A stretch of 60,626 nt of DNA from sequence record NC_070971.1. One strand, given 5' to 3'. The translations under genes were made by a program, and so were the position numbers. The DNA is from Pseudomonas virus PBPA162. Within the stretch, counting starts at the first letter, position 1. Every line of letters starts with the position of its first letter. A model generated the notes under the pieces. That model was not told where the DNA came from. It saw nothing but the letters and a program-made list of their open reading frames with translations, and made no database searches. Shown here in pieces: positions 21,919 through 45,443 of this stretch.

Positions 21919-22742
21919 TCTACATAATCCTCTGCGAAGTATCCGTCACTATACCCGTTGATGTCCCCTGGTGCAAAGCCAGCGGCTTCCTGATAATCGT
22001 TGTAGTTAATGATGGGCAAGTCTTCCGTTGTCACTTCGAATGACACCTCATATATACCGTTGTAAGGACGCTCAACCGGGGTTCCGCTGAACTGGGCACG
22101 CACCTGGGTAAAGCCGCCCAGCGCCGCAGGCACCTTGCTACGCCAGAAGAAGGCCCCGCCGCAAAGCGTGTGGTAGTAGAACTGAATGAAGATTTCACGC
22201 TGGTCCGGCGTCAGGATGACGCTATGCTGAAACTTGCCAACCTGATTCAAACGGCGTACCCGGCTTTCCGGGGTACTTTGCGGGTTGATGTCGGACAGGA
22301 TAAGCGGGTCAACCCTGCTCATGCTGTACTGGTCGGATTCGTAGTCGGGGAGCTGGGATGGCCACACAGGCAGCACACCCTTGGCCGGGTAGGCAAACTT
22401 GGGCATACGCTGCATAAAGCGACCGCTCACCTTCCACCGCCCGCCAGGTTGGGGCGTGTAGGTGGGAGCTCCGTCCAGGCACCGCACGTTAATCATGGTG
22501 TTACCGGGGCCGGGTAGGTCAACCCAGTTGTTTCCAAAGGCGTTGTCGTAACGCATCCATCCGTCAAAGATGCCGCGTTGGTGCATGCTTAGATCCCAGG
22601 TAAACGTCATCACAAGGGGGTTGGAAGCCCCCTTGCGACGTACGCGGGTAGTGTCATCATCCATCTTAGTCCCCTTTTGGGGACTAAGATAGGAACCCTG
22701 GTATCCTTCACGCACCGGTCGGGGTAACGTGGTCGGGTACAT
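21915..22742 (-). CDS. Minor tail / distal tail protein (gpM-like position)
   Basis: Immediately follows the tape measure gene. Confidence 0.4.
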   Translation of the reverse strand: MYPTTLPRPVREGYQGSYLSPQKGTKMDDDTTRVRRKGASNPLVMTFTWDLSMHQRGIFDGWMRYDNAFGNNWVDLPGPGNTMINVRCLDGAPTYTPQPGGRWKVSGRFMQRMPKFAYPAKGVLPVWPSQLPDYESDQYSMSRVDPLILSDINPQSTPESRVRRLNQVGKFQHSVILTPDQREIFIQFYYHTLCGGAFFWRSKVPAALGGFTQVRAQFSGTPVERPYNGIYEVSFEVTTEDLPIINYNDYQEAAGFAPGDINGYSDGYFAEDYVE

Positions 22743-25700
22743 TAGTTAGCTCCAATGCTCGGTTGTAGGTTGAATGCGTCTTTGGTTGCGTCAAACAGCT
22801 CGCCGCGACGGTTACGCATTTGGCCAGCCAGGTTATCCGATACTTGGTCGATCAGGACGGTCAGGTTGAGGTTACCTTTCTCGTCTTGCTCTTCCCTGGT
22901 AGTCACTTGCGCACCAGCGTTGTTGATGATCTGAATGTTAACGCCAGAGTTGCCATTGTACGGCGAACCACCGTTATTAGCAACCAAGGAACTAGCCCGT
23001 CCGCTTGCCAATGCTTCCAGGTTGTTAACACCCAGCCTTCGAGTAGCTTGAGCGTTGAAGACGTATTCTTGGCCGTGTACAACACCTGCCACCTGTTTGG
23101 TTCCGTAGTTGCCGGTGTACCCGCCCTTCTCGTACCCCGCCACGTTCTGGCTCTTAATAGCCTGCACGTTGGCCAGGCCCGCCACAATGGCCGCACCAGC
23201 CGCAGCAGCACCCAGGGCAGGGCCTACAATGGGTATGCCCGCCATCGCCGCGTACGCAGCCGTAGCGGCCTGGTACGTGTTGATTACGGCCTGGGCAATG
23301 GCAGCAGCCTTACCGATGGCTGCCAGCTTCTTGTTACCGCTGCTGGACATCTGTGCCATCATGCCAAAGAAGCTATCCGCCTGTGCCAGGTACTTACCGA
23401 CGTACTCCACCTGGGCTTGGTACTTCAGCTTTTCAGCGGTTTGAGCGCTAATAACGTCAGCCTGCCTAGCCGCATCAATGCGCGCAAGGAAGTCCTTGTA
23501 TTGCTGCTCGTATGCGTTCCAAGCCTCGATAGTACCTTGCATGGCGTCTTCGCCAAAGATGTTAACCACAGACTGGGCTGCCTGGCCGCCGCTAATCTGA
23601 CCGGAGCGCTTGAGGTCACCTGTTGCGCCAATGCGGTCGATTTCGTCGCGCTGCTTATAGACAGTGTCCTGCAACACGGCATTGCGGGCTGCGTTCGCAC
23701 GGGCCGCTTCACGCTCCGCCTCGACACGACGCTTGATAGCCTCGGTGGCTTCGTTAGTGAGCTGGATGTTCTTGCTTTCCAGATCCCGACGAATTTCGAG
23801 CATCTTAGCCGCGTCCTGCTGGGCGTCACCAACCAGCTTATAGGACTCGATTTGCTCATCCAGCTTGCGGGTTGCCGCACCGATGGGGTCCAGGGCATCC
23901 CGATACTTTTGACGCAGGCGTTCCATAATTCGGACTGCTTCTTCCTGCGAAATAAGCATCTTCTTGGTTGCCGGGTCCATGGTTTGGGTAGCCTTGGTGA
24001 GCACTTCCTGAGCTCGGGCGAGCCGCTTGATGGCGTTTTCGGTAGGGTCAACCTCACCGCGAACGTTGGCCAATGCCTTCTTGAGCTTTTCCAGTTCCCG
24101 TGCAGCTTTCTTAGCGGCCTTGTCGTCCACGCCAGCCGTTTGGGTAAGGTTGGCACCTTCACCACGAAGCTGGGCCTCTTGCAGGGCCTTGGCGTCCTTG
24201 ATGCGCTGGTTAGCGATTTCCCGGGACCGCTTACCGATAACGTCAAACACCTTACCAACGTAGTCCACATTCATGGCGTCAGTGAAAGACTTCTTCAGTT
24301 CATCTAGAGCGGCTTTGTTGTTTTCACCAATCTCGATGCGCGGAAGTTCAATCTTGGTTTTGTCCAGGAACTCGGTCAGGCCTTTGGCCGCCTGCGGGGC
24401 GAAGTAGGCCATGCCTTCTGCAATTTTACGCAGTGCAATTTGCCAGCCATTGAGTAGCGTTTCGATGGCACTGATACCAACGTTGGCGGCGCTCTTCATG
24501 ATGCCGTCCATGTACTTCGGCCAGTTGTCCCACAGCTTGGTCGCCGCGTCATACGCACCCACAAAGGTGCCGATCAACGTGTTGGCGTTGTTCTTCATGA
24601 CCGAAGCAAGATAAGCGCCAAGGTTACGGAACTGCTCACCCCAGCCGTCGGTTTTGGCAGACAGCCAGTCAATAGCCACACCCCAAGCCGCACGCACAGC
24701 GTCCGCAGCGATTACCAGGCCGTCACCCATCACGGATAGCGTTCCTTTGGCAACATCTTTCAGGGTAACTACCTTGTCTTCGGTGACTTTGATCTGGTCG
24801 CCGAAGTAGTACAGGGCAGCGGCAGCAGCGGCAACAGCGCCCGCAATGAGGCCGATGGGGTTGGCCAGCAGGGCGGCGTTGACGCCAAAGATAGCGGTCT
24901 TCAGACGGTTGAGGTTGGCAATGAGGCCGGGACCAAGGTTGACAGCCATGGCAGTGCCAAGGCCTACGACGGCTACCGTGGTTAGCTCCATGTTCTTACC
25001 AAGGGCCAGCATAGCGGTAGACATTGCCCGCGTGATGCCGGTAGCCTTGTCGAACTCACCAACGCTTTGCAGGAAGTTGTTCCGCAGAACGTTGAACGAC
25101 TGGCCCAGCGTCGGGATGGTCTTCTTGAAGCGCTCGTCAATGTCAGCAGCCGCCGCGCTAAATGCTTCACGCATAACTTGAGACGTAATCTTGCTGTCAC
25201 TTGATAGCTTCTTCAGCTCGGACCGGGTGACCCCCAGCCGTTTGGCAATCATATCCGCAACCACAGGCAAGTTCTCCATGATGGAGCGGAATTCGTCACC
25301 TTGCAACCTGCCGGAGCCGAATGCCTGTGCCAACTGGAGCAGGCCCGCCGCCGATTCGGTGGCAGTAGCTCCCGACACAACGATAGCCTTGTTGATGGTT
25401 TCGGTCATGCGCAGGGTTTCAGCCTGCCCAGCCCCAAGGTCGCGCATCGCCAAGTCAAAGCGTTGGAAGGATGTAGCAACGTCCTGTACCGGCTGGCGGG
25501 TGCGGTCGGCCAGTTCAAACATTTCCTTGGTCAGTCGGTTGACCGTTTCCATGCTTGGGGCCAAGTTGACCAGCTTGTTACCCAGAGCGGTGTATGCGTC
25601 GGCCATGCCGAGCACTTCCTTTGCGCCCATGCTGACACCAGTAGCCCCAGCCACCGCGCCAAGCGCCCCAGCAGTACCAGGCCCAGACACTTGCGGACGG

Positions 25701-26584
25701 TTGCGAAGTTCCTGGTTGGCTTTACGCTGGGCTTCGGCCAGGCGCAAGGCTGCCAGGGCGGCACGGTCGTTTGCAGCCGCCGCATTGGCCGCCTGCGTGC
25801 GCTGCCGCTGCTGTTCGGTGGCCAGGCGCTGGGTAGCTACCTGTGCGTTGGTAGCGGCTGTTGCTGCGCGGCTTTGGGCCGCTGCCACGTTGGATAACGC
25901 AGCTTGCGCTTGCGCGGCTGCCGTGGCGGTGCGTTGCTGTTCCGTGTTGAAGCGCTGTTGGGCCGTGGCGGCCTGAGCCTGGGACGCGGCCAAGCGGGAT
26001 TGCGCTTGCTGAACCTGAACAGCCGCCGCTGCGGTACGCTGCTGTTCGGTTGCAAGACGCTGTGCTTCTACCGCAGCACGGGCCGTTGCCGTAGCAAGGT
26101 TCTGCAGAGCGGTCTGTGCAGCAGTCTGCGCAGCAGTCATGCGGGCCGATTCGGCCGTCGCGCGGGACTGCGCCTGGCTTAGCTTGGCCAGTTCCTGGTT
26201 AGCCCGTGCCTCTGCTGCTACAGCCTTCTGCAAGGCCGCCTCAGTACCCGCCATTGCCGCCTGTAACTTCTGCTGCTCTACCGCAACTTTGGATTGGCTA
26301 ATGGCAAGCTTGGCGTTGGCTGCGTCCAGCTTACTGGCTGCTGTGGCCAGTTTGGTATTGGATACCGCAAGCTGGTCATTCGACTTGATAACGCTTTGGG
26401 CAGTGCGCAACATCCGGTTGAGGTCAGTAACCACACTGGCGCCCAACTTGATGCCGCCAAGCGTCTTGTTTAGCTTAGTGATATTTTCGTGTGCAAGAAT
26501 GGCGGCAGAAGACAGGGAGCGCACACGCTCAACCGCCTTTTCGCCGCCAGTCTCGCGAATGACAATATCAATTTGATCGGACAT
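22742..26584 (-). CDS. Tail tape measure protein
   Basis: 1280 aa, highly alpha-helical and Ala/Gln-rich with internal tandem repeats. Its position after the chaperones fits. Confidence 0.85.
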   Translation of the reverse strand: MSDQIDIVIRETGGEKAVERVRSLSSAAILAHENITKLNKTLGGIKLGASVVTDLNRMLRTAQSVIKSNDQLAVSNTKLATAASKLDAANAKLAISQSKVAVEQQKLQAAMAGTEAALQKAVAAEARANQELAKLSQAQSRATAESARMTAAQTAAQTALQNLATATARAAVEAQRLATEQQRTAAAAVQVQQAQSRLAASQAQAATAQQRFNTEQQRTATAAAQAQAALSNVAAAQSRAATAATNAQVATQRLATEQQRQRTQAANAAAANDRAALAALRLAEAQRKANQELRNRPQVSGPGTAGALGAVAGATGVSMGAKEVLGMADAYTALGNKLVNLAPSMETVNRLTKEMFELADRTRQPVQDVATSFQRFDLAMRDLGAGQAETLRMTETINKAIVVSGATATESAAGLLQLAQAFGSGRLQGDEFRSIMENLPVVADMIAKRLGVTRSELKKLSSDSKITSQVMREAFSAAAADIDERFKKTIPTLGQSFNVLRNNFLQSVGEFDKATGITRAMSTAMLALGKNMELTTVAVVGLGTAMAVNLGPGLIANLNRLKTAIFGVNAALLANPIGLIAGAVAAAAAALYYFGDQIKVTEDKVVTLKDVAKGTLSVMGDGLVIAADAVRAAWGVAIDWLSAKTDGWGEQFRNLGAYLASVMKNNANTLIGTFVGAYDAATKLWDNWPKYMDGIMKSAANVGISAIETLLNGWQIALRKIAEGMAYFAPQAAKGLTEFLDKTKIELPRIEIGENNKAALDELKKSFTDAMNVDYVGKVFDVIGKRSREIANQRIKDAKALQEAQLRGEGANLTQTAGVDDKAAKKAARELEKLKKALANVRGEVDPTENAIKRLARAQEVLTKATQTMDPATKKMLISQEEAVRIMERLRQKYRDALDPIGAATRKLDEQIESYKLVGDAQQDAAKMLEIRRDLESKNIQLTNEATEAIKRRVEAEREAARANAARNAVLQDTVYKQRDEIDRIGATGDLKRSGQISGGQAAQSVVNIFGEDAMQGTIEAWNAYEQQYKDFLARIDAARQADVISAQTAEKLKYQAQVEYVGKYLAQADSFFGMMAQMSSSGNKKLAAIGKAAAIAQAVINTYQAATAAYAAMAGIPIVGPALGAAAAGAAIVAGLANVQAIKSQNVAGYEKGGYTGNYGTKQVAGVVHGQEYVFNAQATRRLGVNNLEALASGRASSLVANNGGSPYNGNSGVNIQIINNAGAQVTTREEQDEKGNLNLTVLIDQVSDNLAGQMRNRRGELFDATKDAFNLQPSIGAN

Positions 26585-27017
26585 AACGTCCCCCTATCAG
26601 TTTCACCTTATGCATGGCTTCGATGCCCTTGGCGATAGCATTCTTGGTCATGCCTTCCGGAGCTTGTGGGGACCACCCTTCGTCCAGATCGGTAATGTAG
26701 CTTAGGTTGTTACCGATATGAACTACGTCTTCCCCAATAAGGGTGTCAAGCATTTGCACACCCTGCGCGATTGTAGCACGCACGTTTGCCGGACGGGTAC
26801 TCTGATATTTTCCGGGCGCATGTGGCGCAATTAGATACGCCACCGGCTGGTTAATAGCAACACGCCAGTTAGACACGGCAAGGCCCGTATCAACTGGCGT
26901 GGTATTGGCTAGCTCGGTCAGGACAACTACCGCAACTTCCCGCTTCATCTCTACGATGTTGTACTCCATATCGGAAGCGGTTTTCTTCATCTTGGCAGCG
27001 AACTGTTTAAGGTTCAT
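26568..27017 (-). CDS. HK97 gp10-like protein
   Basis: Motif TPVDTGLAVSNWRV resembles the HK97 gp10-family signature PVDTGxLRxSW. Confidence 0.45.
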   Translation of the reverse strand: MNLKQFAAKMKKTASDMEYNIVEMKREVAVVVLTELANTTPVDTGLAVSNWRVAINQPVAYLIAPHAPGKYQSTRPANVRATIAQGVQMLDTLIGEDVVHIGNNLSYITDLDEGWSPQAPEGMTKNAIAKGIEAMHKVKLIGGRYVRSN

Positions 27018-27358
27018 TTCTGCACCCCTTTGGACGCTCGATTACGGGCTTCCGTCAATTTGTTGCTCTGATAGTTGCAATACGCCTTATCAAGCTCTTG
27101 TATCACACGAATGGCATACTTACGGTCTTCCTTGTTGTACCACTCGTTTTCGTCTAACCACACAAGGATCTCGCTGTAGGGTATTGGCCCTTCCCCTATC
27201 TCAGTCATGGCACGGCTGCTAGATAGTTCCCGCATAGCCTCTAGGTACACGTCAAGGCCTGGAAGTAGCTGCGGCGCGTTGCGCATGGCTTCAGGCAAAG
27301 GCCCGCCGAATTGGCGGGCCTTCTCCATGACTACGGCTTCATCCTTACCGTAGGTCAA
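27014..27358 (-). CDS. Tail assembly chaperone T-frame extension. Expressed as a G-T fusion by -1 frameshift, with no own ATG.
   Basis: The ORF is in the -1 frame relative to G. It is open from the slippery site through 27014 and begins only with TTG. Confidence 0.5.
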   Translation of the reverse strand: MTYGKDEAVVMEKARQFGGPLPEAMRNAPQLLPGLDVYLEAMRELSSSRAMTEIGEGPIPYSEILVWLDENEWYNKEDRKYAIRVIQELDKAYCNYQSNKLTEARNRASKGVQK

Positions 27359-27378
27359 CTGATAGAGGAGGACCTCTG

Positions 27379-27801
27379 TCAGTTTTTTACGTCAGCTTCC
27401 AGCATACCTTCACGGAAGGTGACCATTGCGCCGGCGATAGTCTGAACCTCTGCAAACAGGTCCGGGAGCAGGTTGAACAGGTATACGATGTTGTCCTCGG
27501 TGCAATCCAGCAGCGCACCACCTTCGTCGCGTACCATGCTCCAATCCCTGACTACGGTCTTGGCGTAAACTTCCACCATGATACCGCGCAGGACTTCGGC
27601 GTCGATGGTGTCGTTTTCGATCTGACGACGATGCGGCTTGAGGGCCACTTCCATGACGCGCTGGAATGCGGCGTTACCTCCGCCAGCACGCGCAATGGTC
27701 ATGGTGATCTTTTCACCGGTTTCTTCGTCGACGCCGAACTCGACAACGCGTCCGTCTTTTTCCAGGGATTTGTCGGTTTTATACTGCTTGAAGAGGCTCA
27801 T
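27379..27801 (-). CDS. Tail assembly chaperone G-like. Ends at slippery heptamer A_AAA_AAC.
   Basis: Located between the major tail and tape measure genes. Terminal codons are GAC GTA AAA AAC TGA. Confidence 0.6.
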   Translation of the reverse strand: MSLFKQYKTDKSLEKDGRVVEFGVDEETGEKITMTIARAGGGNAAFQRVMEVALKPHRRQIENDTIDAEVLRGIMVEVYAKTVVRDWSMVRDEGGALLDCTEDNIVYLFNLLPDLFAEVQTIAGAMVTFREGMLEADVKN

Positions 27802-27826
27802 ATGGTATCTCCGTTGGTGTTGTTAC

Positions 27827-29338
27827 TTACGCCCAGGAGGGCAGTTGGGGGAAGTGCACATACAGCAGAGTATGCCCGAAAGGCGACTCGGCTGCAACGT
27901 TTTCCAGCGGAATAGTTACGGCGCTGTTGAGCTCCACGCCCAGCATGCCGCCGCCAAGGGTCAACAGCGGGATGTCGTAGACGATGCCGTTGTTGTTCTT
28001 GACCAGGATGATATCCATGGTAACGTCGCTGTTGTTGTTGATGGCGTTCAGTGCACGTACGTCTTGGAAGTACGCGGTGGTAGAGCCGCCCACTTCGAAG
28101 TTGCCAACGTTGATGTCGAAGTTGCCCAGGACACCAATGGCTTTGGCACCGGCGCCGCCGTTGTTAATGGTGATGGTCATTTCGGTAGCGTACATGAACA
28201 GCGGGTCATGCTGGCCAACCAGTTGGAACGCCAGGCGGCGAACGTCGCTGGAGGTGTTGAACGCGTCTTGTTTGACAAGGGCCGGACGTGAACCAGGCAA
28301 AAGGCCTTGCGCCCCGCTACGGGCCTGGGAGTCGCACGCAACGAAGGCAAACTCCGCGGTCACCTTGTCGGCAGACGCAACGTTGATGGTCAGTTCGTTG
28401 GCAACCGAGCCGGTGACGTACTGGCTCATAACGCCGTCGGCGTCATTACCCAGGGTACGCTCGAACGCGAAGGTGAAGCGCTCGATTAAGGCAGGGTCGG
28501 GTTCGTTGCGGATGACGGTACCCAGGCGCACTTGCAGGCTGACGCCGGTTCCGGCTTGGGCTTCGCGGGTCTTCCAGCTCACCTTGTCCAGGACGAGGTA
28601 ATCAGCGCTGATGCGACCAACGCGGGCGAAGCCCTTGCTGTTCGGGAAGCTGGTAGAAGCTTCTTCACCGCCGAGGAAGATCCATTCGCCGCCAATGACA
28701 CCCAGTGCAGCGGCGATGCCGGTAGCGCTCAGACGCAGCTCACCATTGGTGAGGGTGATAGACGCAGCACCCGCCGCGAAGCTGTGGCCAACCTGTACCA
28801 GGCTAGCGGTTGCTGGCGGGTTAGCTTCGGCGGCCAGGCCGGCGCACAGCACGCTAGTGCCGTCGATGGCGGTGACCAGCTTAACGCCGTTGTTAGCAGC
28901 AGTGCTGAAGCCCTGGGCCATAACCACACTACCAACCTTCAGCTTGGCCGCCACCGTTGCGTTTACCGCGTAGCCGTCGGCCACGGTTACCGCAGTGATG
29001 GGCAGCGGTGCGGTGTTCAGCGGCGTGGTGGTTGCACGTTCGCGGGCAGCCGCAAACATGAAGCCTTCCATGAAGTGCTGGTGGTTCAGGTTGGTGAGGT
29101 CGCTGGTGTAGCCGGCGGAAGCTTCCTTGTCGGTTACTACGCCCTTCTGGTTCTGGCGGCTGGCGTTGATGGGCTGGCGGGCTACGGTGGTGGTGGTGCC
29201 ACCAAAGTCGCCGTAGCTGTTAGGCTCCAGCGGACGCCAGATTGGTGCGTCTTCGGCTTCGTTCAAGCACTTTTCCAACGCGTAGCGTAGGCCAGTGTTG
29301 TTCGAATCCACTTTGTATACAGGACAGTTCCGAGCCAT
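27827..29338 (-). CDS. Putative major tail protein (large, 503 aa)
   Basis: RBS AGGAG upstream of the ATG at 29338. Its position before G/GT and its Gly/Ala/Thr-rich composition fit. Confidence 0.5.
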   Translation of the reverse strand: MARNCPVYKVDSNNTGLRYALEKCLNEAEDAPIWRPLEPNSYGDFGGTTTTVARQPINASRQNQKGVVTDKEASAGYTSDLTNLNHQHFMEGFMFAAARERATTTPLNTAPLPITAVTVADGYAVNATVAAKLKVGSVVMAQGFSTAANNGVKLVTAIDGTSVLCAGLAAEANPPATASLVQVGHSFAAGAASITLTNGELRLSATGIAAALGVIGGEWIFLGGEEASTSFPNSKGFARVGRISADYLVLDKVSWKTREAQAGTGVSLQVRLGTVIRNEPDPALIERFTFAFERTLGNDADGVMSQYVTGSVANELTINVASADKVTAEFAFVACDSQARSGAQGLLPGSRPALVKQDAFNTSSDVRRLAFQLVGQHDPLFMYATEMTITINNGGAGAKAIGVLGNFDINVGNFEVGGSTTAYFQDVRALNAINNNSDVTMDIILVKNNNGIVYDIPLLTLGGGMLGVELNSAVTIPLENVAAESPFGHTLLYVHFPQLPSWA

Positions 29339-29349
29339 GGCGGATACTC

Positions 29350-29778
29350 CTATTGGATTGAATCGTAGGTGAAGTCTACAATCACGTGAAGCTGGCTCCA
29401 CATGTCCCTGCTGTCCACTTCGCGGATGCCAGGATTGCGGAACCATACGTGACAGGTTGTTGCCTTGCGGTACGCCGACACAATCGCATACGCCAGCTTG
29501 TACAGCTCGGTATTACCCTGCCCAATAGGGCAGTGGAGTTGAATAAACAGCTTACCATTGCTGGTCCACCGTTTCAACTCCTCAAGGGGTCCAGTCAGTG
29601 AAGACTGAAACCCATTGTTGTGGCGGAGTATAGCACGCGCCCAAGTGCCAGCACCAGCATTATCCCCCATGGGTAAGTCGTCAAACTTGACGTTGCTCAT
29701 GGTGTGGCCATACTGCCGCCATGCGTCATAGAACGGGGTTAGGATTTCGTTCCTTGCCTGGATATAGTCAACGCTCAC
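29350..29778 (-). CDS. Hypothetical protein (tail terminator/completion position)
   Basis: Position only. Confidence 0.35.
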   Translation of the reverse strand: MSVDYIQARNEILTPFYDAWRQYGHTMSNVKFDDLPMGDNAGAGTWARAILRHNNGFQSSLTGPLEELKRWTSNGKLFIQLHCPIGQGNTELYKLAYAIVSAYRKATTCHVWFRNPGIREVDSRDMWSQLHVIVDFTYDSIQ

Positions 29779-30149
29779 CGGTTAACTCCAAATGCGTACA
29801 GCAGCACGGTGGCCCCAGGTTGCAGCACCTGGCACCATTCCACTTTGTAGCGCTGACCGGCATCGGTCAATACATGGAATGTTTCCAGATGGTTTTGGTC
29901 CCCTGCTACTAGAACAATGTTGTCAGCAGTCTTGTGCAAATCCCAATCCTGCCAGGATGACCCAAAGTCGTTACCTTTGAACGGCACCATTACCCCCATC
30001 AGTGGTCCAATAACCACAGGGGTGCTAGTGCCGCCGTTCCAAGGCTGGTCCGGGTCCGTTTGTACTTCAATCTTCTCAAAGCCAAAAGGCCGACCGTGTT
30101 TAGCGATCAGCCTTTTTGCTAGGAGCAGATACTTCTCATGCTGCACCAT
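29775..30149 (-). CDS. Hypothetical head-tail joining protein
   Basis: Position only. Confidence 0.35.
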   Translation of the reverse strand: MVQHEKYLLLAKRLIAKHGRPFGFEKIEVQTDPDQPWNGGTSTPVVIGPLMGVMVPFKGNDFGSSWQDWDLHKTADNIVLVAGDQNHLETFHVLTDAGQRYKVEWCQVLQPGATVLLYAFGVNR

Positions 30150-30652
30150 TACCGGTAAACCCTTCCGTTACTGGGACGCACAAGGCCCCGCATCAGGGAA
30201 TCGGCGGCGGGATATGGTCGAACAAGAACTCCTCCCATTCCGACGCCTCCAGTTTTAAACGATTTCTTTTCTTGGATCGGTCCGACTTTCTCGAGTGTTT
30301 CCGTAACAACGAATCCCGATTCATCCAGGACCGGCTCTGCGTATAAAGGATGCTGGCTTGATCGGATTGCATACTCGCACACCGCCTTTTTCAGCGAGTC
30401 CGGAATGCCGTCCCATTTCTTGCGAGGGAATGACAGGGCCTGAGTATCCGTCAGGCGGGTAGAAAGGAACAAACAACCCCAGCGGGTTTCAACATAGTCC
30501 GTTGCAGCGACAATGCTTTGTTCCTTTTTCTCCACCGTCAGGTCCGCCCACTCCTGGCGCCCGCGCAATGCAAAGTACGCGTCAGCATACGCCACATCAA
30601 TATATGCGTTTGCGTTCGGCAGCCCTGATCCATCTTCAACAATGAGACTCAT
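30149..30652 (-). CDS. Head-tail connector/adaptor (gp6-like)
   Basis: The N-terminal YIDVAYADAYFALRG resembles the gp6-like connector motif. Confidence 0.45.
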   Translation of the reverse strand: MSLIVEDGSGLPNANAYIDVAYADAYFALRGRQEWADLTVEKKEQSIVAATDYVETRWGCLFLSTRLTDTQALSFPRKKWDGIPDSLKKAVCEYAIRSSQHPLYAEPVLDESGFVVTETLEKVGPIQEKKSFKTGGVGMGGVLVRPYPAADSLMRGLVRPSNGRVYR

Positions 30653-45137: not shown

Positions 45138-45443
45138 ATGGGAACTGTCGCTCAGTTGATTAAAATCGGAATGGAGCGCGCCATACTGTGCGGCGAACTC
45201 AACCACATGTGCTTCCGCCTGGCGGAGGTCAAAGACTTTGACGAAATCACCCAAAAGGAGTTGACACTATTCAATAGCTGGATACGCACGGTGCTAGAGC
45301 GCCAGCCGTGGTTCGGAGTTAGGGGCTTCCTCAACCGTAGGAACCCAGCGGTGTTCGAGGAAGAACCCCATTGCATGGTCGAGGAGTCCAACTGGTGTAA
45401 TTTCTACGTGTGGACCTACTATGATTTGATCAAAAAGGGTTGA
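45138..45443 (+). CDS. Early protein, paralog B of a tandem pair
   Basis: Starts 2 nt after paralog A. The C-terminal WCNFYVWTYYDLIK matches. Confidence 0.5.
   Translation: MGTVAQLIKIGMERAILCGELNHMCFRLAEVKDFDEITQKELTLFNSWIRTVLERQPWFGVRGFLNRRNPAVFEEEPHCMVEESNWCNFYVWTYYDLIKKG

Follow-up and report, generated by a model that had tools for sequence, protein, structure and literature searches.

Iggy-group Pseudomonas phage records give two neighboring tail genes, G and T, as separate coding sequences. The locus raises the question of whether T is a gene in its own right or the second half of a longer protein, made by ribosomes that change frame at the end of G. The pair is deposited as G plus a "tail chaperonin" for Iggy, Knedl, PaP002, NP1, YuA, Ab26 and many related phages, and the papers on Iggy and Knedl mention neither the chaperones nor a frameshift. 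Two-gene records with arbitrary T starts include those of many therapeutic-candidate Pseudomonas phages. We analyzed the region in a 60,626-nucleotide stretch of DNA from Pseudomonas virus PBPA162 (NC_070971.1), hereafter the window, which is 99.8-100% identical to Pseudomonas phage Iggy/Pa-V.

The tail genes lie on the minus strand in the order tail terminator, tube, G, T, tail completion and tape measure. Two overlapping reading frames are thereby placed between the tube and tape measure genes, an arrangement that serves as a class criterion for the frameshifted chaperones (Xu, Hendrix & Duda 2004). The genes from tube to tape measure are as follows.

27827..29338, minus strand: tail tube (major tail) gene (PF18906 Phage_tube_2, 80.9 bits; phrog_290; RefSeq gp23)
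27808..27812, minus strand: Shine-Dalgarno sequence GGAGA, read from the sequence, 6 nt upstream of the G start codon
27379..27801, minus strand: gene G, tail assembly chaperone, 140 aa, 15.7 kDa; zero-frame product with stop codon TGA at 27381..27379
27014..27382, minus strand: T segment, 122 codons in the -1 frame, from CTG 27382..27380 to TGA 27016..27014
26568..27017, minus strand: tail completion / Neck1 gene (phrog_169, E 2.7e-28)
22742..26584, minus strand: tape measure protein gene, 1280 aa (PF20155 TMP_3, 188 bits; phrog_3336, E 2.7e-232)

The tube gene is directly upstream of G; the RefSeq start is used here, and the longest open reading frame reaches 29446. The ATG of the tail completion gene shares bases with the T stop codon (ATGA), and in all annotated relatives this gene separates T from tape measure. 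The papers on KL1 and Loki describe the same position between GT and tape measure, and a G/GT pair with one intervening tail completion gene is a variant accepted in the literature for HK97, SPP1 and KL1. The tape measure protein is presumed to be the partner bound by the G domain.

Both halves of the putative fusion match tail chaperone families. G, which corresponds to RefSeq Iggy gp24, matches phrog_313 "tail assembly chaperone" (E 1.4e-19), and T matches phrog_3817 "tail chaperonin" (E 2.8e-20) as well as Pfam PF23812 Phage_TAC_18, where it scores 70.6 bits (cut-off 27) over profile positions 1-79 of 79. The profile phrog_8233 has 271 positions and spans both, with G covering positions 5-139 and T positions 153-258. 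Because a single profile covers G and T, other members of the family must have been deposited as fusions. Searches with G found no matching Pfam family, no PDB sequence match at E <= 1 and, with the single G protein as query, no confirmed relatives in IMG/VR; a homologous-protein search with the fusion gave one match only. The AlphaFold2 model of G, built from a single sequence, has a mean pLDDT of only 46.3. Tail assembly chaperones are said to adopt a "spiral" fold (Pell et al., 2013).

The 3' end of G reads ...GAA GCT GAC GTA AAA AAC TGA on the minus strand. The two features of interest at this junction are:

27382..27388, minus strand: slippery heptamer A_AAA_AAC, candidate -1 shift site, in X_XXY_YYZ phase as GT[A AAA AAC]
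27392..27394, minus strand: TGA in the -1 frame, closing that frame upstream of the heptamer

The initial annotation had placed the heptamer at 27388..27382 and called it a canonical X_XXY_YYZ site, and both points, like the TGA at 27381..27379, agree exactly with our reading, since the zero-frame codons put the heptamer in phase. The T frame is -1 relative to G (27801-27358 = 443 = 2 mod 3) and, as that annotation also held, is open from the heptamer to a TGA at 27016..27014. Because the -1 frame is closed by the TGA at 27394..27392, any change of frame is confined to 27391..27382, a window of 10 nt. The heptamer takes up essentially all of this allowed interval, whose 10 nt end at the stop codon of G. 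The downstream frame thus overlaps the upstream one by 10 nt, holds a canonical heptamer in zero-frame phase inside the overlap, and extends the product by 122 codons.

The arrangement exceeds chance expectation. In a crude gene set of the window, 42 of about 18,000 codon positions carry an in-phase X_XXY_YYZ (about 0.23%). Just one of these, the heptamer in G, is followed by a long -1 reading frame, of 122 codons; the figure is 59 or fewer for every other. Two of the 42 abut a stop codon, the other being at 45434-45440 with a -1 frame of 22 codons.

We infer that a programmed -1 frameshift at A_AAA_AAC makes both G and a G-T fusion from one start, and we put the probability of this reading at roughly 0.9; the evidence is at the sequence level. 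Ribosomes would initiate at ATG 27801, with GGAGA as the presumed single initiation site for both products, and translate G. Most would stop at TGA 27381..27379 to release the 140-aa chaperone. A minority would slip back by 1 nt at the heptamer, with tRNA-Lys trading one AAA for another and tRNA-Asn leaving AAC to re-pair with AAA, and would go on to read CTG ACA GAG... in the -1 frame for 122 codons. The predicted result is a protein of 262 aa and 29.7 kDa (...EADVKN-LTEVLLYQ...) with T as its C-terminal domain; the size of about 28 kDa estimated previously was close. By analogy with lambda, the tape measure protein would be covered by G domains from both products, and the scarce fusion would use its T domain to bring in the tail tube protein. 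A constant rate of slipping would give the G:GT ratio that tail assembly needs. That this is the conserved siphovirus G/GT frameshift, as the initial annotation proposed, is supported by all features of the class that a sequence can show: gene position, the heptamer, the domains of the -1 reading frame and a conserved, covarying site.

Comparison among relatives supplies the last of these. We used 20 intact relatives with protein identities of about 24-45%; 18 of them represent many genera, and the other two, Vibrio phage MAR10 and Sphingomonas phage Kimi, are distant. Pseudomonas phage PSV3 was left out because the G gene is split in its record and has an uncertain start. An in-phase heptamer is found in all 20, as AAAAAAC (A_AAA_AAC) in nine and as GGGAAAC (G_GGA_AAC) in 11. 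It lies directly before the G stop in 17, and at 39, 39 and 12 nt before the stop in CN1, YuA and PW916, respectively; the -1 frame is open for 96-136 codons in every case. Arrangement and slip site are therefore kept among homologues despite divergence. The encoded residue at the heptamer switches between K and G while the preceding synonymous wobble base covaries, always matching the next two bases (for example Ala GCA/AAA_AAC, Ala GCG/GGA_AAC). Such covariation points to selection on the slip site at the nucleotide level.

On the protein side, the motif L-[TIWS]-[EAD]-[VFY]-[LHI]-x-[YHF] begins in the -1 frame at the first codon past the heptamer in every member, and the T alignment is conserved from residue 1. 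ATG, GTG and TTG are absent from the -1 frame for 44 codons in NP1, 46 in KL1 and 39 in Lucius, and start-codon positions in the T frame vary between relatives. In those three phages, therefore, the conserved segment is reachable only by frameshifting. A close comparison is also available: PaP002, at a DNA identity of 97.1%, encodes the same fusion protein (100% identity), with eight synonymous and no non-synonymous differences in G. Identity of the protein despite DNA divergence suggests purifying selection. The comparison says little about selection on the linker, because T has one substitution only.

Could T instead be an independent gene, started at ATG 27328 or TTG 27358, with the heptamer irrelevant and no fusion made? 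Iggy-group entries in the public databases take this view, from the ATG in RefSeq (Iggy gp25, start at 27328..27326) and from the TTG in PaP002. The initial annotation was right that TTG, at 27358, is the first start-type codon of the T frame; its statement that the frame has no ATG of its own is not strictly true, since the in-frame ATG at 27328..27326 lies 18 codons past the slip site. An AAGGA is present 13 nt upstream of this ATG, in a hairpin loop of the predicted fold, and the Pfam T-domain match begins at residue 14 of the TTG reading frame, past the ATG. However, the 13-nt spacing is poor for a Shine-Dalgarno sequence and the TTG has none, the separate coding-sequence calls come from automatic gene callers (Pharokka), and the 18 codons between slip site and ATG are conserved as protein across the family from codon 1. 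Start codons differ in position among relatives, and homologues in NP1, KL1 and Lucius lack any for 39-46 codons. An independent T would also leave unexplained the heptamer in 20/20 intact relatives and its wobble covariation. We consider this alternative very unlikely, although the ATG with its weak, distant AAGGA could in principle also yield some free T protein. A different route to a fusion is transcriptional slippage, in which RNA polymerase stutters on the six consecutive A residues and adds one A, giving transcripts with GT in a single frame; it is a known alternative source of such fusions (review PMC5009743). The homologues argue against it, as 11 of 20 have GGGAAAC, whose runs of three do not form a slippage-prone template. 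Productive slippage by bacterial RNA polymerase usually needs longer runs. Moreover, X_XXY_YYZ is conserved in a fixed codon phase, preceding base included, a pattern typical of tRNA re-pairing and not of homopolymer length. Slippage during transcription is very improbable here.

The remaining alternatives accept frameshifting and concern how it occurs. A "shifty stop", a variant of the main explanation, would place UGA in the A site while the P-site tRNA-Asn alone slips from AAC to AAA; its product, ...KN-L..., would be the same as that of tandem slippage. A stop directly after the heptamer, in the window and in 17/20 relatives, is what such a mechanism would use. Yet CN1, YuA and PW916 keep the heptamer 39, 39 and 12 nt from the stop, so an adjacent stop is unnecessary, and conservation of the first triplet (XXX) speaks for obligatory re-pairing of the upstream tRNA as well. 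On balance a shifty stop is unlikely, but it deserves some weight. A further elaboration concerns the modification state of the tRNA. The tRNA-Asn that decodes AAC carries queuosine at its wobble position. In Iggy, a member of the Queuovirinae, preQ0, a precursor of queuosine, is channeled into the phage DNA (PMC10484667). If the slip were a termination-coupled event with an efficiency set by the queuosine status of tRNA-Asn, the G:GT ratio could respond to the phage's own deazaguanine metabolism. We found no evidence for a link between queuosine and frameshifting, and the same site occurs in relatives outside the Queuovirinae; we regard this idea as very unlikely.

Tandem slippage at A_AAA_AAC, the preferred reading, makes a specific prediction for the junction. 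The initial annotation had given ...EADVKK/LTEV..., which we replace with ...EADVKN-LTEV..., because the A-site AAC would be decoded as Asn before the P- and A-site tRNAs slip. The tryptic junction peptide predicted under tandem slippage is NLTEVLLYQLTYGK; a slip that precedes the decoding of AAC would instead give (K)LTEVLLYQLTYGK after ...EADVK-K. Asn (AAC) and Lys (AAA) can be told apart in a peptide, so the junction would identify the slipping tRNA. The AAG site of lambda cannot show this, whereas the AAC site of the window could.

The predicted frameshift would probably have an efficiency of a few per cent. In E. coli test systems, A_AAA_AAC is far less shift-prone than A_AAA_AAG (PMC5009743), so the efficiency may be low. 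AAG, the optimal A-site codon in bacteria, is never used in this family, as the window and 20/20 intact relatives have X_XXA_AAC.

The initial annotation had suggested a search for a downstream pseudoknot or stem. We found a local element but no conserved stimulatory structure:

27357..27384, minus strand: local 12-pair hairpin AACUGACAGAGG-UCCU-CCUCUAUCAGUU, starting inside the heptamer

The core AGAGG/CCUCU stem of this hairpin lies 4 nt past the heptamer, and it is possible that the element acts as a weak stimulator. Folding of the 50 nt downstream of the heptamer gives z = -1.65 in the window; folded phage by phage, the corresponding segments have a mean z of -0.83 and fall below -2 in 3/19. 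RNAalifold applied to 91-nt junction segments from 19 phages returned zero conserved pairs and no consensus structure. An Rfam search returned only tracrRNA and isrO at chance level, far below gathering scores, and no frameshift element. An upstream Shine-Dalgarno-like stimulator is unconvincing in the window, where the anti-SD duplex of -3.3 kcal/mol ranks at the 35th percentile of the gene; in 10/19 relatives such an element is in the top decile of its own gene. Stimulators look lineage-specific, because an 11-bp hairpin or SD-like element does occur in some relatives, NP1 and nyaak among them. On the plus strand, a terminator-like match at 27357-27384 is no more than the sense hairpin and A-run read from the opposite strand, and we dropped the terminator reading because the site sits inside a minus-strand operon.

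The closest known systems are homologous genes for which the same site was predicted earlier, in Burkholderia phage KL1 (gp18/gp19) and Acinetobacter phage Loki (gp12/gp13), together with the Xanthomonas phage Samson homologue, in which the frameshift is annotated as a joined coding sequence. All belong to the protein family found in the window (33-40% identity by tblastn; shared PHROGs), and all share the -1 extension of about 120 codons and the tail completion (HK97 gp10-like) gene that separates GT from tape measure. As in the window, the heptamer abuts the stop, which is TGA after GGGAAAC in KL1, and Loki has AAAAAAC. The window phage belongs to a different genus, Iggyvirus in the Queuovirinae, and Iggy-group records lack the fusion annotation that Samson has; the frameshifts of the window, KL1, Loki and Samson are all predicted.

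The archetype is the -1 frameshift of lambda G/G-T, reportedly characterized by Levin, Hendrix and Casjens in 1993 and treated again by Xu, Hendrix and Duda in 2004, 2013 and 2014. The ratio of G to GT in lambda is 30:1 (PMC5009743). In lambda as in the window, two overlapping reading frames follow the major tail gene, a canonical heptamer for a -1 shift stands close to the 3' end of G, G has 140 aa and the T extension is of similar size (T reading frame of 144 aa in lambda, 122 aa here); the presumed logic of a fixed low G:GT ratio is common to both. They differ in the slip site, which is G_GGA_AAG 15 nt before the stop in lambda and A_AAA_AAC abutting the stop in the window. In lambda, T is followed directly by the tape measure gene H, whereas the window has a tail completion gene in between. 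The lambda frameshift is experimentally proven; that of the window is predicted. Profiles built from 19 family sequences showed no detectable homology to lambda G and T in hhalign (probability 0.1%, E ~0.57). The functional analogy consequently rests on class-level features, and the window pair would work like lambda G/GT while lying outside the lambda sequence families.

E. coli dnaX (A_AAA_AAG) resembles the predicted site in that two products arise in a bacterium from a single start, by tandem -1 slippage at a heptamer rich in A. The dnaX site is preceded by an SD-like element and followed by a stem-loop, for which the window has no convincing or conserved equivalents: a stem-loop of the dnaX type stands at 5-9 nt, while the window hairpin begins 0-4 nt past the heptamer and is not conserved. 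The A-site codon is AAG in dnaX and AAC in the window, and the shifted product is the longer one in the window, unlike in dnaX. The heptamer has a counterpart in IS1 insA-insB', where Sekine and Ohtsubo reportedly found in 1989 a frameshift at A6C, the heptamer A_AAA_AAC. That frameshift is said to operate in a Gram-negative host at low efficiency and to need no elaborate stimulator. IS1 is an unrelated system, encoding a transposase where the window encodes a virion chaperone.

The predicted frameshift is of a known and ordinary class, and the new part is the fusion missing from Iggy-group records. It leaves the current understanding of tail assembly and of recoding unchanged. Its value is mainly for annotation, the proper product being the predicted 262-aa fusion made by recoding. 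A re-annotation rule for more than 300 phage records follows: AAAAAAC or GGGAAAC, in most cases abutting the stop codon of G, with L-T/I-E-V-L-x-Y next in the -1 frame. The chaperone family also offers a natural series on the preference for X_XXA_AAC with an adjacent stop in proteobacterial phages. Even the rearranged ewik record still carries GGGAAAC-TAA.

The minus strand carries an open reading frame for the tail assembly chaperone G, whose 3' end reads ...GAA GCT GAC GTA AAA AAC TGA. The elements that define the junction between G and the −1-frame ORF, T, are as follows.

Elements of the G/T junction, read from the sequence
ATG 27801 to TGA 27381..27379, minus strand: G ORF, 140 codons
6 nt upstream of ATG 27801, minus strand: Shine-Dalgarno sequence GGAGA
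27388..27382, minus strand: slippery heptamer A AAA AAC
27394..27392, minus strand: TGA closing the −1 frame upstream

The heptamer is read in the phase GT[A AAA AAC], as in a canonical X_XXY_YYZ site of tandem slippage, and the −1 frame (KKLTEVLLYQLTYGKDEAVVMEKARQ...) is stop-free until the TGA at 27016..27014. Because the upstream TGA shuts the −1 frame, the two frames are jointly open over only 10 nt, and the heptamer fills these 10 nt. Predicted sizes are 140 aa (15.7 kDa) for G and 262 aa (29.7 kDa) for the fusion, GT. The minus-strand sequence and its translation confirm the heptamer coordinates, phase and open −1 frame described in the initial annotation. Two of its details need correction. 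The −1 frame, said to lack an ATG, has one in frame at 27328, 18 codons past the slip, and this is the start assigned to T (gp25) in the Iggy RefSeq record. The junction was given as ...KK-L..., whereas simultaneous slippage predicts ...EADVKN-LTEVLLYQ..., since the A-site codon AAC is read as Asn before the shift. The G/GT interpretation itself is supported by this anatomy, by protein family matches and by conservation among 20 relatives, and we estimate a probability of roughly 0.9 that a −1 ribosomal frameshift makes a G-T fusion in this phage.

G matches phrog_313, “tail assembly chaperone” (E 1.4e-19), and the −1 ORF matches both Pfam PF23812 Phage_TAC_18 (70.6 bits, cut-off 27) and phrog_3817, “tail chaperonin” (E 2.8e-20). 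A single profile of 271 positions, phrog_8233, spans both proteins, with G at 5-139 and T at 153-258; members of this family have thus been deposited as fusion proteins.

Chance was gauged in a crude set of non-overlapping ORFs from the window, comprising about 18,000 codon positions, which holds 42 in-phase X_XXY_YYZ heptamers (0.23%). Only the G/T site is followed by a long −1 ORF (122 codons, versus 59 or fewer for the other 41), and a stop codon adjoins just two of the 42, the second (45434-45440) having a −1 frame of 22 codons. It is unlikely that a chance heptamer would fall within the 10-nt overlap, at the one spot in the genome where this class predicts one, and the comparative data from relatives settle the question.

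Over 3 kb, Pseudomonas phages Pa-V, Pa-X, Pa-oumiga, Iggy, Knedl and HTN2 match the window at 99.8-100% identity, and PCCM_PaP002 and PaP007 at 97.1%; these identities place the window in the genus Iggyvirus. Although its DNA diverges by 2.9%, PaP002 has a 100% identical GT fusion: in the proposed frames, G shows eight differences and T one, and every one of them is synonymous. Queried with the hypothetical fusion, tblastn recovered 312 phage records, almost all of them aligned in two pieces that correspond to two reading frames. We compared 18 diverse relatives, with G domains 24-45% identical to that of the window and with hosts in Pseudomonas, Bordetella, Pseudoxanthomonas, Xanthomonas, Burkholderia, Klebsiella, Rhodobacter, Stenotrophomonas, Brevundimonas, Achromobacter, Acinetobacter, Sphingomonas and Escherichia, and added two phages from the edge of the family, Vibrio phage MAR10 and Sphingomonas phage Kimi. 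All 20 have an in-phase heptamer at the homologous position (AAAAAAC in 9, GGGAAAC in 11) and a −1 frame open for 96-136 codons. The wobble base of the codon before the last two triplets of the heptamer always equals the two bases that follow it, as in Ala GCA, Val GTA or Thr ACA before AAA_AAC, and Ala GCG, Ser TCG, Leu TTG/CTG or Gln CAG before GGA_AAC. At the same time, the encoded residue alternates between Lys and Gly.

Two relatives show local peculiarities. In Achromobacter phage ewik_TL4 (positions 52-1272 of its locus), G is reduced to its last ~18 residues with GGGAAAC-TAA kept, and the T frame continues open upstream through a tape-measure-like N-terminal segment, annotated as a 406-aa CDS; either the locus was truly rearranged, with T joined in frame to a different protein, or the record was misassembled. 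In Pseudomonas phage PSV3 (232-781 of its locus), the annotation splits G into two short CDSs that overlap (232-510 and 473-781), pointing to a sequencing indel or to a true frameshift within the gene.

RefSeq and PaP002 annotate T as independently initiated. Such initiation could use the ATG at 27328, but it is contradicted by conservation of the peptide ahead of that codon. The −1 peptide is conserved from the first codon past the heptamer, L-[TIWS]-[EAD]-[VFY]-[LHI]-x-[YHF], followed by G-P-x-E... and then P-L-P and N-A-P-E-L. Start codons, where relatives have them in the −1 frame, lie at non-conserved positions, and in NP1, KL1 and Lucius that frame is devoid of ATG, GTG and TTG over 44, 46 and 39 codons, respectively. 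Nor would independent initiation account for the covarying heptamer. Covariation, conservation from the first codon and the lack of an alternative entry together show that selection acts on the site for its role in recoding and not for the protein sequence it encodes. Free T from ATG 27328 might accompany GT as a minor product. Two facts contradict transcriptional slippage on the A6 run of the window: slightly more than half of the homologues carry GGGAAAC, and the codon phase and preceding base are conserved. A stop-dependent slip of a single tRNA would be a mechanistic variant of ribosomal frameshifting with an identical product.

The initial annotation had suggested RNA folding to look for a downstream stem or pseudoknot. 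Local hairpins are present in the window, but no structure is conserved across the family.

Hairpins downstream of the slip site
27384..27357, minus strand: 12-pair hairpin starting inside the heptamer, core AGAGG/CCUCU 4 nt after the heptamer
27326..27294, minus strand: strong GC hairpin in the T coding region, GGCCCGCC-AAUUC-GGCGGGCC with flanking pairs, then UUUG

The 92 nt past the heptamer form an unusually stable fold (−45.9 kcal/mol, z = −5.3), driven by the GC hairpin, which begins right at the ATG used as the gp25 start; the first 50 nt give z = −1.65. As classical stimulators, the 12-pair hairpin is too close to the heptamer and the GC hairpin too far from it. The latter, having only three U residues, was not flagged as a terminator. 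A terminator scan did report a plus-strand signal at 27357-27384 (12-pair hairpin and T-run), which corresponds to the slip-site hairpin and A6 in reverse complement and, lying inside a minus-strand operon, is probably coincidental.

RNAalifold found zero conserved pairs across the family, 3 of 19 phages folded singly have significant downstream structure, and an Rfam search gave nothing above chance. Some relatives, including NP1, PW916 and BcepGomr, have an upstream Shine-Dalgarno-like element as in dnaX (10 of 19 rank within the top decile for the gene concerned); the window has none (−3.3 kcal/mol, 35th percentile). Given the GGAGG upstream of the heptamer in several relatives and an 11-bp hairpin about 8 nt downstream in NP1 and nyaak, stimulators look lineage-specific. 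The most consistent flanking feature is a stop codon directly 3' of the heptamer, which may slow the ribosome as a “shifty stop”. It adjoins the heptamer in 17 of 20 relatives and is dispensable in CN1, YuA and PW916, where the distances are 39, 39 and 12 nt. We infer that the signal is essentially the heptamer, as in lambda, plus lineage-specific embellishments.

What the data show is the sequence anatomy and its evolutionary conservation; every functional step of the following scheme is inferred. Ribosomes would initiate once, at ATG 27801; the majority would terminate and release G, and a small fraction would slip −1 on A_AAA_AAC to yield GT. By analogy with lambda, the G domains might bind the tape measure protein while the T domain recruits tube protein, with stoichiometry fixed by slip frequency and both G and GT left out of virions (PMC5009743). 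All members examined, namely the window, the 20 intact relatives and the ewik_TL4 remnant, have AAC and never AAG as the A-site codon, and neither the C-terminal Asn of G nor the first Leu of T varies. In E. coli, A_AAA_AAC provokes far less shifting than A_AAA_AAG (PMC5009743). Efficiency is therefore probably low, which fits a chaperone needed at about 1:30.

Homology to lambda G/T is undetectable by hhalign; the region would thus work like lambda G/GT, in the same functional class but outside lambda's sequence family. That class is reportedly the one of Xu, Hendrix and Duda (2004), and the window site is an unannotated case of this thoroughly known type. Samson and KL1 records carry joined CDSs; Iggy-group records list two, and the frameshift goes unmentioned in both the Iggy paper and the Knedl announcement. 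The practical value lies in re-annotation and in a clean natural series of X_XXA_AAC-plus-stop sites.

The minus-strand gene order is head-tail adaptor, head closure, tail terminator, tail tube, G, T, tail completion/Neck1 and tape measure.

Genes flanking G and T
30149-30652, minus strand: head-tail adaptor
29775-30149, minus strand: head closure
29350-29778, minus strand: tail terminator
27827-29338, minus strand: tail tube, PF18906
26568-27017, minus strand: tail completion/Neck1, phrog_169, HK97 gp10-like
22742-26584, minus strand: tape measure, PF20155

The tail tube protein (27827-29446, minus strand) is unusually long at 503-539 aa, as in relatives (~510 aa), and the 266-position Pfam tube profile is stretched across residues 49-499, a spread that points to a large insertion or a decorating domain. 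Neck1 lies between T and the tape measure gene in all relatives, an arrangement described before in KL1 and Loki. A GGGG-rich Shine-Dalgarno sequence lies upstream of its ATG, which overlaps the T stop (ATGA); as few ribosomes pass through T, expression of Neck1 is presumably driven by its own Shine-Dalgarno sequence and not by translational coupling. In Pseudomonas phage YuA, a sigma-54-type promoter is annotated inside the T coding region (1003-1163 of its locus), just upstream of the tail-completion gene, and is recorded as experimentally active (2000 Miller units).
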